NCBI RefSeq assembly: GCF_000012465.1
Contig: NC_007335.2
Span: 870,001 to 902,000, forward strand
Length of the DNA stretch: 32,000 nt
Source of the DNA: Prochlorococcus marinus str. NATL2A
GTDB lineage: Bacteria > Cyanobacteriota > Cyanobacteriia > PCC-6307 > Cyanobiaceae
Reading direction: 5' to 3'
Each line of letters starts with the position of its first letter. Positions within the stretch are counted from its first letter, which is position 1. Below are positions 28,126-31,684 of the stretch, in pieces. Made by a program: the position numbers and the translations under genes. The notes beneath the pieces are model-generated. The model worked only from the letters and a program-made list of their open reading frames with translations. It searched no databases and was not told the origin of the DNA.

Positions 28126-28536
28126 TTATTTCATATCTATATTATCAAGACGCTCTTTGAAAGATTTAAAGGAAGAGTCTTGGTTTGATTTCGAAGAATC
28201 AGATAAAATGCTTTCATTTTGTTGAACTATATTATTATTTGTCGTTTGGTTATATATAGAAAAATTTTTGGCATTATTAAAACTCACAGTTGATTGATTA
28301 CTATTGACTTTAGAACTTTGATTAGAACTATTAGTGTAGGAACTATTTTGTATTGCTGGTATATTTGCTTTATTTTTATTGCTAATAGTTTCCTTAGTCG
28401 GAATAGAAGTTGTATTTTTCTTTTTATTTAGAGGATATTTTTTAACTTCATTTCTCAACTGATTTAAAAGTTTATAATGATTTGAGGAACTAAATTTTTT
28501 AATAAGTGATGGGTCCCAACTTACTGATTCTTTCAT
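28126..28536 (-). CDS. Hypothetical 136-aa protein with a Ser/Asn-rich low-complexity body
   Basis: A structured-looking N-terminal 35 aa (MKESVSWDPSLIKKFSSSNHYKLLNQLRNEVKKYP) is followed by about 90 aa of S/N/Q/T-rich sequence. It is divergent from the peroxiredoxin gene. Confidence 0.5.
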   Translation of the reverse strand: MKESVSWDPSLIKKFSSSNHYKLLNQLRNEVKKYPLNKKKNTTSIPTKETISNKNKANIPAIQNSSYTNSSNQSSKVNSNQSTVSFNNAKNFSIYNQTTNNNIVQQNESILSDSSKSNQDSSFKSFKERLDNIDMK

Positions 28537-28660: not shown

Positions 28661-29257
28661 ATGACGACAAATGAGTGCCTAAGGGTAGGAATGCAAGCAC
28701 CAGATTTTGCTACAACAGCAGTAGTAGATCAAGAATTTAAGGACATAACACTTTCTCAGTACAGAGGAAAGTATGTTGTTCTATTTTTCTATCCATTAGA
28801 CTTCACGTTTGTTTGCCCTACTGAAATCACGGCCTTCAGCGACAGATATAGCGATTTCAGTAGCAAAAACACAGAAGTTTTAGGTGTTTCGGTTGATAGT
28901 AAATTTACACATCTTGCTTGGATTCAAACACCAAGGAATGAGGGAGGAATTGGTGACATTAACTATCCACTAGTATCTGATTTAAAACGTGAAATTTGCC
29001 AATCTTATAATGTTTTAAATGAGGATGGAGAAGCTGATAGAGGTTTGTTTATAATTAATCCAAGCGGAATAATTATGCACTCAACAATAAATAAAGCACC
29101 TGTTGGCCGAAATATAGACGAAACTCTAAGAGTATTACAGGCATATCAATACGTTGAATCTCACCCTGATGAAGTATGTCCAGCAGGATGGACTCCTGGT
29201 GACAAAACCATGAAAGAAGATCCTAAAGGAAGCAAGGAATACTTCTCTGCATTATAA
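28661..29257 (+). CDS. Typical 2-Cys peroxiredoxin (AhpC/TSA family)
   Basis: The peroxidatic Cys lies in [15 protein letters not shown] and the resolving Cys in EVCPAGW. At 198 aa it resembles cyanobacterial/chloroplast 2-Cys Prx. Confidence 0.95.
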
Positions 29258-29277: not shown

Positions 29278-31005
29278 TTAGTTGCTAGATAAGTAAGAAT
29301 TAAGTGAATCAATTACAAAATCAGATTCAAGAGTTTCCTTAACTATTAATTCATCAACAAGATTATCCATTAAGGAAACTTTATCTGAAAGAAGAAATAT
29401 TGCATGATTAACAGCCTTATTTGCTATTGAAATAATTTGCTTATCAATTTCCCTGCTTGTCCTCTGAGAATATTCTTTTTTATTCTTCATAAGATCCTTT
29501 CCAAGAAAAATTGTATCTTTTTCTGAATCATAAGTAATAGGTCCAAGATCTGAGAATCCAAATTTAGTAACCATTTGATTTGCCCAAAAATATACATTTT
29601 CTAGTTCCTTTTGTGATCCTTGTGTAACTTCCTTAGAGCCAAAAATAATCATTTCAGCAGCCCTAGAACCAAGTGAAATAACAATTTTGTTATAAATGTA
29701 GTTACGTGTAAAAAGTCCGCTGTCAATGGTCTCTTCATCTGGTGTGAAATAAGTCATTCCAGAAATATTTCCGAGAGACTTAAATAAAGAGATTTTTTCT
29801 AATTTATCTTGGGTCGGAATCAATAAAGCAACAAGGGTTTTACCAATAATCTGATAAGCAATTTGTCTTTTTTTTGTCTGATCTGAAAGTGGCTTAGACA
29901 GTATTCCAAATCGTGTTTTTTCAAGTGCATTTTCTAGTTCAACACTGCTTATGACTGACTTATTATTTCTAGCAGCATAGATTGCAGCCTCATTCATTAG
30001 GTTTTGTAAATCTGCACCTGAGTAGCCAGGCGTCTTAGTTGCCCAGTCTTTCAGATTCACTGAATCACATAAAGGTTTTGTCCTTGCGTGAACGGACAAA
30101 ATTTTGTGTCTAGCTTCTCGATCAGGAAGGGATATGTCAATACGACGGTCAAATCTACCAGGCCTAGTTAATGCTCGGTCAAGAATATCGGGTCTATTCG
30201 TAGCTGCAATAACTATGACTCCATTATTTGCTTCGAATCCATCCATCTCGGTTAAGAGCTGGTTAAGTGTTTGCTCTCTCTCATCGTTGCCTCCTCCTAT
30301 TCCAGCTCCCCTTTGTCGTCCAATAGAGTCAATTTCATCTATGAAGACTATGCAAGGAGCCTTTGATTTAGCACTTTTAAATAAATCACGGACACGTCCA
30401 GCTCCAACACCTACGAACATTTCAACAAATTCCGATGCAGAAATAGAAAAGAAAGGAACATCAGCTTCTCCTGCAATTGAGCGAGCTAGTAATGTCTTAC
30501 CGGTTCCAGGTGGACCCACTAATAAAACTCCCTTCGGCGTTTTAGCTCCGAGGTCTTTTAATGTCTGTGGATTCTTTAAAAAGATTACTATTTCCTTTAA
30601 TTCGTCTGATTCTTGATTTAATCCAGCCACATCATCGAATGTGTATTTTCTAATATCATCTTCATTTACTTGAGAAGAACGACCAGAAAAACTTTGCAGA
30701 TTGTTTAATAACTTGGATGATCTTCTAATTAAAAATACAAGAGAGAAAACAAAAATCAAAGTGAGGCCAAAACCTGTTATGTAGTTTGCTAATCTCTGGT
30801 CTGATCTAATATCTCTTACAGTAAGAGGAACATTATATTCCTCAGATATTCGAAGAATTTTCTGATCATTATAAAATATAGGTATTAATTTTTTCTCTCC
30901 ATTTATTAATTCAACAATGACCTCTCTTCTATTTGGAATTAAAATAATTGAAATAATTTCACCACTTTCAATATCCCTCAATAATTGACTATAACTTTTA
31001 CTCAT
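29278..31005 (-). CDS. FtsH-like AAA+ protein lacking the HExxH zinc-protease motif
   Basis: The AAA+ module is intact: Walker A GPPGTGKT, Walker B IVFIDEID, pore loop FVEMFVGVG and [23 protein letters not shown]. An M41-like C-terminal domain is present, but the position of HEAGH reads QIIGK and there is no HExxH anywhere. Only one hydrophobic helix is present ([19 protein letters not shown]). An in-frame stop lies 5 codons upstream of the ATG. Confidence 0.85.
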
Positions 31006-31177
31006 TTTATAATTAAATCAATTAATTCAAATGAATTTATATACTAACTATAGTAAAAATGATAGCGAACTTGAATTTATATAGAAAAAGAGACAAGAAG
31101 TTAGTATTTCCTTAAGTTTTTTTTGTTAAATTGGAGCTTGACGTTATAAAATATAATGTCTGTAATTGTTGAGAAAA

Positions 31178-31357
31178 ATGGCGGTACCCAAGAAAAAAAC
31201 CTCTAAGGGGAAGAGAAATCAAAGACACGCCACATGGAAAGGTAAGGCTGCTGTAGCAGCAGAAAAGGCATTATCAATTGGAAAATCAGTACTTACTGGA
31301 AGAGCTCAGGGATTTGTTTATCCAATGAATGAGACTTCAGAAGAAGAAGCTGATTAA
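31178..31357 (+). CDS. rpmF: 50S ribosomal protein L32
   Basis: [21 protein letters not shown] is the canonical L32 N-terminus. I placed the start at the ATG at 31178 rather than the TTG at 31166 on the track. Confidence 0.9.
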
Positions 31358-31363
31358 GGATAA

Positions 31364-31684
31364 TTAAGAACCAAGCTTATAGGCTTCAAGAATCAGAGCA
31401 TATGTAGAACCAATTCGGATATTATTTATTATCATTACGGGAATGGTCAATTTAGGTATTAGATATGATCGGATTACCAACTCCATAATTAATAATATTA
31501 TAATTGCCAAAAATATTGTATTAACAGATTTATCTAGTAAAAAAGAAAGAAAACTATTGGTAAAATAAAAACCAAATAGTAATGAAAGAACTAATAAACT
31601 CCTCTTACTCCATGAATCAGAGATAATTGGATTAATAATGAAAATCAGTGAATCTATAAATTCTCTGAATTTAGTTTTCTGCAT
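31364..31684 (-). CDS. Small membrane protein, possibly Ycf20-like (DUF565)
   Basis: At 106 aa it has three hydrophobic segments. The family assignment rests on size, architecture and cyanobacterial context only. Its start lies 1 nt downstream of the stop of the upstream HAD gene. Confidence 0.5.
   Translation of the reverse strand: MQKTKFREFIDSLIFIINPIISDSWSKRSLLVLSLLFGFYFTNSFLSFLLDKSVNTIFLAIIILLIMELVIRSYLIPKLTIPVMIINNIRIGSTYALILEAYKLGS

Follow-up and report, generated by a model that had tools for sequence, protein, structure and literature searches.

What remains for a member of the FtsH family to do once its zinc site is gone? The question is raised by ftsH4 (picocyanobacterial naming), a gene for a protease-dead FtsH in a stretch of 32,000 nucleotides from Prochlorococcus marinus str. 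NATL2A (assembly GCF_000012465.1, contig NC_007335.2, positions 870,001 to 902,000; hereafter, the window). We establish here the anatomy, orthology, distribution and single origin of this gene, as well as the purifying selection that acts on it, and we propose that its product is probably, if by no means certainly, a maintained pseudo-protease that would form the ATPase-only half of a heterohexamer with the orthologue of FtsH3. What is new, then, is an independently evolved FtsH pseudo-protease of a known class, one that has been briefly noted in print. The features of the locus are as follows, with the basis of each in parentheses.

29278-31005, minus strand: ftsH4, encoding a 575-residue protease-dead FtsH (open reading frame, Pfam, NCBIfam, primer mapping)
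30808-31005, minus strand: N-terminal alpha+beta domain, residues 1-66, homologous to the FtsH periplasmic/lumenal domain (alignment to E. coli FtsH, AlphaFold2 (AF2) model)
30724-30792, minus strand: single transmembrane helix, about residues 72-94, equivalent of the second transmembrane helix (TM2) of FtsH (hydropathy, charges of the flanks)
29911-30648, minus strand: AAA+ ATPase module with lid, residues 120-365 (Pfam, motif alignment)
30493-30516, minus strand: Walker A
29320-29883, minus strand: Peptidase_M41 domain without zinc site, residues 375-562 (PF01434)
29839-29853, minus strand: degenerate zinc motif Q385-I-I-G-K389, replacing H-E-x-x-H (alignments to E. coli FtsH and to orthologues)
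29605-29607, minus strand: E467, where FtsH has the Asp that is its third zinc ligand (same alignments)
31018-31020, minus strand: in-frame TGA, five codons upstream of the ATG (coding-strand reading)
31166-31357, plus strand: rpmF (ribosomal protein L32), divergent neighbor (TIGR01031 match, synteny)
28661-29257, plus strand: 2-Cys-type peroxiredoxin (AhpC/PrxU type), convergent neighbor across a 20-nt gap (open reading frame, family match)

The motor half of the protein is complete. Pfam places AAA at residues 160-292 (3.8e-48), AAA_lid_3 at 315-358 and Peptidase_M41 at 375-562 (1.6e-38), and every motor motif is there, that is, Walker A (GPPGTGKT), Walker B (IDEID), the pore loop (MFVGVG), sensor-1 (AATN) and the arginine fingers (RPGRFD), all of them invariant over 54 aligned sequences; the inter-subunit DGF motif is invariant as well. 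The protein has the AAA+ module of the FtsH family and its C-terminal M41 fold (PF01434; Foldseek matches to FtsH structures), and it also belongs to the family by score, marginally, with 607.4 bits against the cut-off of 600 of the NCBIfam profile TIGR01241 (FtsH_fam). An AF2 model (pLDDT 75) shows the FtsH fold, with the M41 helices modelled except for a low-confidence stretch at 485-510, and with a compact alpha+beta N-terminal domain (helices 5-14 and 48-56, strands 17-23, 28-33, 38-42 and 61-63; pLDDT 75-85). The zinc site is destroyed. In the alignment with E. coli FtsH (7vhp; E 2.6e-135), AYHEAGHA faces AYQIIGKT and the Asp of 'GASND' faces E467, where most other copies of clade LLI have D, and a motif search found no HE..H in the whole frame; of the HExxH and acidic ligand of the family, the third position alone is kept, as Glu. 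The original prediction, read from the letters of the window, had called an intact AAA+ unfoldase, a recognizable M41 fold, QIIGK in place of a HExxH absent from the whole frame, an altered region of the third zinc ligand and a tail-to-tail arrangement with a 2-Cys peroxiredoxin, and each of these calls was borne out.

NATL2A carries four FtsH genes, and HExxH is present in the other three (HEAGH in L001, HEVGH in L002 and L003; L and G numbers are our labels for loci and genomes). For their naming, we searched the orthologue loci for the quantitative PCR primers of the four ftsH isoforms of MED4 and MIT9313 (PMC6300248). The dead gene is the 'picocyanobacterial FtsH 4' of the literature because both published 'FtsH 4' primers, for MED4 and MIT9313 each, match its orthologue exactly (L111/L090; L110/L054), while the primers for isoforms 1, 2 and 3 match the orthologues of L003, L001 and L002, respectively. 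In previous work, isoform 1 corresponds to Synechocystis FtsH2, isoform 2 to FtsH3 and isoform 3 to FtsH4, and picocyanobacterial FtsH4 corresponds to Synechocystis FtsH1 (slr1390) (PMC6300248, PMC11262661). A tree that we built from 60 FtsH proteins (quick search under LG+C20, with support from the Shimodaira-Hasegawa-like approximate likelihood ratio test (SH-aLRT)) resolves into four clans, with one member each from the outgroup cyanobacteria G028, G032 and G039 and with members of G030 in three. The ftsH4 clade joins the clan of L108 (a protein of a Synechococcus elongatus strain), L126, L127 and L128 with SH-aLRT values of 100 and 98; the joint group holds one FtsH per four-FtsH cyanobacterium, apart from the FtsH2, FtsH3 and FtsH4 clans, and has the FtsH2-type clan as its closest neighbor, which agrees with both groups being of type B. 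Judged by the published tree and ours, the dead gene is the orthologue of the type-B Synechocystis FtsH1 (slr1390), with which it shares the orthologous clan, the single copy per genome and the domain order; the rpmF neighbor is common with the S. elongatus orthologue, a divergent rpmF being kept in every Cyanobiaceae locus checked and at L108. Compared to Synechocystis FtsH1 and the outgroup orthologues, however, the NATL2A protein has its zinc site destroyed, lacks the first transmembrane helix (TM1) and has evolved much faster. A search of representatives at 50% identity returned mostly long multi-AAA fusions and brought no gain for the phylogeny. Extra or long-branch FtsH copies were also seen near the FtsH4-type clan in larger cyanobacterial genomes (L131 of G039, L122 of G030, L125 of G038), and for G026 and G038 the strong FtsH matches numbered fewer than four, with only one type-B-like copy in the tree.

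We surveyed 151 Cyanobiaceae genomes (at least 90% complete; match threshold E<=1e-160) and found exactly one ftsH4 orthologue in 147 of them. The other four comprise MIT1223, with a more diverged copy, one genome in which contig ends divide the gene, and two drafts without a match (G055, G088). These two absences likely reflect an assembly gap more than gene loss, since the adjacent rpmF was not matched in either draft (weak evidence, as a 63-residue query can be missed). The zinc motif is distributed among the orthologues as follows; the strain labels SS120, MED4 and MIT9211 used here and below are probable ones (that of MED4 is also backed by the primer matches).

Synechococcus and Cyanobium genera, LLIV (MIT9313): HE[IV]GH
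LLVII isolates MIT1341, MIT1300 and MIT1307: HE[IV]GH
LLII/III: NEAGK (SS120), YEIGR, NEIGR
MIT9211 and a relative: NEVGK, HEAGR
MIT1223 (LLVIII): RNASK
20 LLI genomes: Q[IV]IG[KR]
HL: NEVGR

Every dead copy has Lys or Arg in place of the second His, whereas the first His is kept in one of them and the Glu in all except those of LLI and MIT1223; the founding lesion was hence probably the change of the second His, the one alteration common to all. In a quick tree from which the motif columns were left out, the dead copies form one clade (SH-aLRT 92, the only support measure), for which a single change is enough, although long branches could help draw them together there; the same grouping corresponds to the species relationship of PMC11559063, in which LLVII stands between LLIV and LLII/III. 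On these grounds the loss of the zinc site has a single origin within Prochlorococcus, on an early branch of the genus. The original prediction had left room for a sequencing error or a strain-specific decaying pseudogene, to be judged by a survey of orthologues; neither was found, as the motif is lost in all streamlined Prochlorococcus clades examined and the gene is under purifying selection. The most diverged dead copy is that of MIT 1223 (L144 in G041): besides RNASK, it has TRAGRFD where the arginine fingers lie, its terminal branch is 2.2 changes per site long and its TIGR01241 score is 513 bits. Its NCBI name is 'FtsH/Yme1/Tma family protein' or 'AAA family ATPase'. The SS120 orthologue (590.8 bits) also scores below the cut-off of 600.

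Selection on the gene was assessed from the ratio of nonsynonymous to synonymous changes (dN/dS; Nei-Gojobori) within LLI and within HL, which gave 0.03-0.10 for the AAA module, 0.06-0.25 for M41 and 0.07-0.17 for the N-terminal domain; dS among LLIV genomes is saturated, which makes dN/dS of the active and dead lineages not comparable. Values far below 1 in all domains mean that ftsH4 is maintained under purifying selection and is no pseudogene. With its AAA and M41 domains, mutated HExxH and selective maintenance, the protein belongs to the FtsHi class of pseudo-proteases. Its sequence has nonetheless drifted: between NATL2A, MED4 and SS120, which represent the clades in all our between-clade identities, the N-terminal domain of ftsH4 is 36-41% identical, compared to 74-94% for the three active paralogues. 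The zinc-intact pair of MIT9313 and Synechococcus is already somewhat faster than the other paralogues as well (52/84/65% for N-terminal domain/AAA/M41).

The membrane anchor is the second peculiarity of this protein. Transmembrane helices were sought by a Kyte-Doolittle 19-residue window alone, which found a single hydrophobic helix in the NATL2A protein (about residues 75-93; window score 2.3) rather than the two of FtsH, and neither TM1 nor a signal peptide precedes the N-terminal domain. In alignments, residue 5 of the protein pairs with residue 34 of E. coli FtsH, and positions 27-596 of TIGR01241 are matched while the first 26, the TM1 part, are not. An N-terminal extension is excluded because of the in-frame TGA (the codons before the ATG read tga-ttt-aat-tat-aaa on the coding strand); the missing TM1, the one remaining helix and the stop five codons upstream had all been pointed out in the original prediction. 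An upstream TM1 through another frame or an alternative start was considered and rejected, the 160-bp gap between ftsH4 and rpmF being AT-rich and full of stops and the upstream frames of orthologues being without a hydrophobic segment. That is, upstream of the conserved 'SYSxLL' start, no hydrophobic helix was found in any Cyanobiaceae orthologue examined, zinc-intact copies included; L061 is a doubtful exception, its hydrophobic segment preceding any plausible start codon. Because the zinc-intact Cyanobiaceae orthologues also lack TM1, its loss is, as read from the orthologues, older than that of the zinc site, and the two losses are independent of each other. The outgroup cyanobacterial orthologues have a signal-peptide-like TM1 ending in AxA, whereas the copies of Synechococcus and LLIV (L109, L110, L042, L060, L071, L075, L086 and others) have a conserved GTG start and replace TM1 by a Pro/Ser/Ala-rich, non-hydrophobic N-terminal extension of about 40-100 residues, which is gone in LLVII and later Prochlorococcus. 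The C-side of the remaining helix carries three K+R and no acidic residue in NATL2A, and averaged over 39 orthologues the C-side has a net charge of +3.7, compared to about 0 for the N-side; since the net positive charge sits on the C-side, the predicted orientation of the helix is that of TM2 of FtsH, with the AAA module in the cytoplasm.

Inactive FtsH-like proteins have been described before, and the original prediction had drawn a comparison with the chloroplast Ycf2-FtsHi motor. This holds as an analogy only. Chloroplast FtsHi1/2/4/5, of the Ycf2-FtsHi-FtsH12 import motor, likewise combine AAA+ and an M41 fold with a mutated HExxH, are selectively kept and are membrane-anchored, but no Ycf2-like partner is seen in the immediate neighborhood of ftsH4, and the AF2-modelled protein is 41-45% identical to solved bacterial FtsH compared to 24-34% to chloroplast FtsHi/FtsH12 chains. 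By these identities and by its nesting within Prochlorococcus, the protein shows no specific kinship with plant or algal FtsHi/FtsH12. As the inactivation is nested within Prochlorococcus while the sister lineages (LLVII, LLIV, Synechococcus) are intact, dead FtsH4 is, on this phylogenetic evidence, a convergent FtsHi of independent origin, neither ancestor nor relative of plant FtsHi. Closer at hand, two papers from one lab (PMC6460958, Mishra et al. 2019; PMC8197885, Mishra and Funk 2021) each devote a single sentence, in the passages concerned, to one FtsHi of P. marinus SS120. The gene meant there is ftsH4 as found in another clade (its SS120 orthologue, L112, has NEAGK and is syntenic), with the difference that the LLI version also lacks the catalytic Glu. 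The relevant passages of the two papers contain no paralogue assignment, distribution, timing or mention of TM1, and in the literature searched we found neither the assignment of the dead gene to the FtsH1 group nor a distribution map or its missing TM1.

What, then, might the protein do? In Synechocystis, FtsH1 and FtsH2 are of type B and each pairs 1:1 with the type-A FtsH3; the FtsH1/FtsH3 complex resides in the cytoplasmic membrane, the accumulation of FtsH1 depends on FtsH3 (PMC9020784), and the complex tunes nutrient-stress regulators (PMC11287208). The heterohexamer is the most economical reading because the dead gene is orthologous to FtsH1, the partner of FtsH3, and among the possibilities raised by the original prediction a maintained inactive subunit of FtsH hetero-hexamers is the best supported. 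Under this hypothesis, the type-A partner would be the FtsH3 orthologue L001 (HEAGH intact; G000:265925-267679), which would supply three working protease sites, while dead FtsH4 would supply ATPase power and ring scaffolding and, by way of the N-terminal domain that it retains, any targeting proper to FtsH1-type complexes. The intact ATP-binding, hydrolysis, pore-loop and inter-subunit motifs would allow substrate gripping and threading in the hexameric ring, and the destroyed zinc site would preclude cutting. The history ran in three steps. TM1 had already disappeared in the common ancestor of marine picocyanobacteria; Lys/Arg then replaced the second zinc His on the branch of Prochlorococcus that leads from the LLVII grade to LLII/III; and the first His and, in LLI, the catalytic Glu too decayed later.

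It is important to note that several observations weigh against this hypothesis. Between clades, the AAA module of ftsH4 is 65-68% identical compared to 89-96% for the active paralogues, and M41, the main hexamerization surface, 34-38% compared to 78-92%; such fast divergence could mean that the partnership with FtsH3 has been loosened or changed. Expression of ftsH4 appears to be low, since the transcript pool of MED4 is described as isoforms 1-3, and the ocean metaproteome figure of PMC11262661 shows FtsH1-3 only. The relationship between FtsH4 and slr1390 is 'less obvious than the others' according to its own authors (PMC6300248), and our tree contains no named Synechocystis sequence, its clans being labelled through the primers of PMC6300248 and the label 'FtsH1' through the tree of that study. 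Further, the N-terminal domain has neither TM1 nor a signal peptide to take it across the membrane, and ATPase activity, the heterohexamer partner and the cellular role are inferences. Given the poorly conserved M41 and what looks like low expression, a protease-free motor or a regulatory subunit is conceivable as well.

Of these, a protease-free, homo-hexameric AAA+ unfoldase, extractase or chaperone outside the FtsH3 partnership, pulling proteins out of or through the membrane as the Ycf2-FtsHi motor does, appears unlikely to us, if less so than the remaining alternatives. The intact motor motifs, the existence of protease-dead FtsH-like motors, the altered anchoring that goes with the family-wide loss of TM1, and the changed functional context that would fit the faster evolution of all three domains relative to the paralogues are all consistent with it. 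Yet TM1 loss and faster evolution are already present in zinc-intact Synechococcus and LLIV and are not tied to a protease-free job, Synechocystis FtsH1 accumulates only with FtsH3, and the gene neighborhood shows no sign of a translocon partner. The more specific version, in which dead FtsH4 would be a single-pass protease-free AAA+ pulling motor, alone or with a partner outside FtsH1/FtsH3, its N-terminal domain of about 70 residues either crossing without a signal or being cytoplasmic, is somewhat less likely again; if true, it would be the bacterial equivalent, reached by convergence, of the chloroplast FtsHi motors, and its topology would be new for FtsH. A dead site within an otherwise assembly-competent fold, in streamlined-genome lineages with few regulators, would also suit a regulatory or 'poison' subunit that occupies places in the ring or titrates the type-A subunit and thereby lowers or retunes the proteolytic capacity of FtsH. 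We regard this as rather improbable, because a mere blocker needs no Walker A/B, pore loop, sensor and arginine fingers kept invariant across the radiation, and an AAA dN/dS of 0.03-0.10 would be superfluous for it.

The last two possibilities are very improbable in our assessment. Decay of the gene, or a sequencing or assembly error specific to the strain, could be suspected from its faster evolution than the paralogues and from TIGR01241 scores that are barely above the cut-off in NATL2A and below it in SS120 and MIT1223, but the frame is open at all of the about 30 streamlined Prochlorococcus loci examined, 120 database clusters (83-99% identity) show the same kind of motif loss, as do five clades or grades, and dN/dS is far below 1 in all domains. 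Just as hard to credit is a protein that still cuts with other ligands or another metal. The catalytic Glu is retained in the HL, LLII/III and MIT9211-type copies, one copy (L077) retains H-E, and the third-ligand Asp/Glu is mostly retained; against this, Lys or Arg replaces the second His in all dead copies, and in the LLI gene both His and the Glu are lost (QIIGK), with no other HExxH present. Hence, we favor the heterohexamer with the FtsH3 orthologue.

That Prochlorococcus, the most abundant phototroph, with a very reduced genome, has retained a non-cutting protease since an early branch amounts to a natural experiment, and suggests that what an FtsH1-type (type-B) subunit essentially contributes is an ATP motor or a scaffold and not proteolysis of its own. 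An engineered precedent reportedly exists: Zhang and colleagues are said to have found in 2010 that, with the zinc site of the Arabidopsis thylakoid type-B FtsH2 killed, its proteolysis is dispensable inside the type-A/type-B heterocomplex. The loss in Prochlorococcus, by contrast, is natural and old, and the dead gene would be a counterpart in nature of that mutant. Our results thus bear on how FtsH1/3-type complexes work in open-ocean lineages and on the interpretation of Prochlorococcus FtsH isoform data in physiology and metaproteomics papers, where FtsH1-4 have been assigned 'presumably parallel functions' to the Synechocystis isoforms (PMC11262661). They also bear on annotation (the dead LLI copies carry the database name 'ATP-dependent zinc metalloprotease FtsH'), and the family-wide lack of TM1 raises a question of membrane topology.

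Finally, a few observations concern the surroundings of the gene. Among the loci examined, the peroxiredoxin adjoins ftsH4 only in streamlined Prochlorococcus, and a scan upstream of ftsH4 on the minus strand returned no usable promoter or terminator. Divergent from the peroxiredoxin gene, an open reading frame at 28126-28536 (minus strand) encodes a Ser/Asn/Gln-rich, low-complexity protein of 136 residues without a family match. A hydrophobic 106-residue open reading frame at 31364-31684 (minus strand), with no NCBIfam family match, adjoins rpmF; nearly all Prochlorococcus loci checked, and some Synechococcus loci, have it in the same place with 30-70% identity. In the orthologues of Synechococcus and LLIV (L109, L060, L075, L080, L086, L087, L088, L042), the GTG start follows a conserved 17-nt block, GTCAAATCGCTA(A/G)GCTC, at a distance of 20-40 nt, and CCAAAC...GATCTT precedes the block. 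In frame, the block reads 'VKSLSS'; its reverse complement holds TTGAC, so that it may serve the divergent rpmF promoter as its -35 region or be a regulatory site that is shared.

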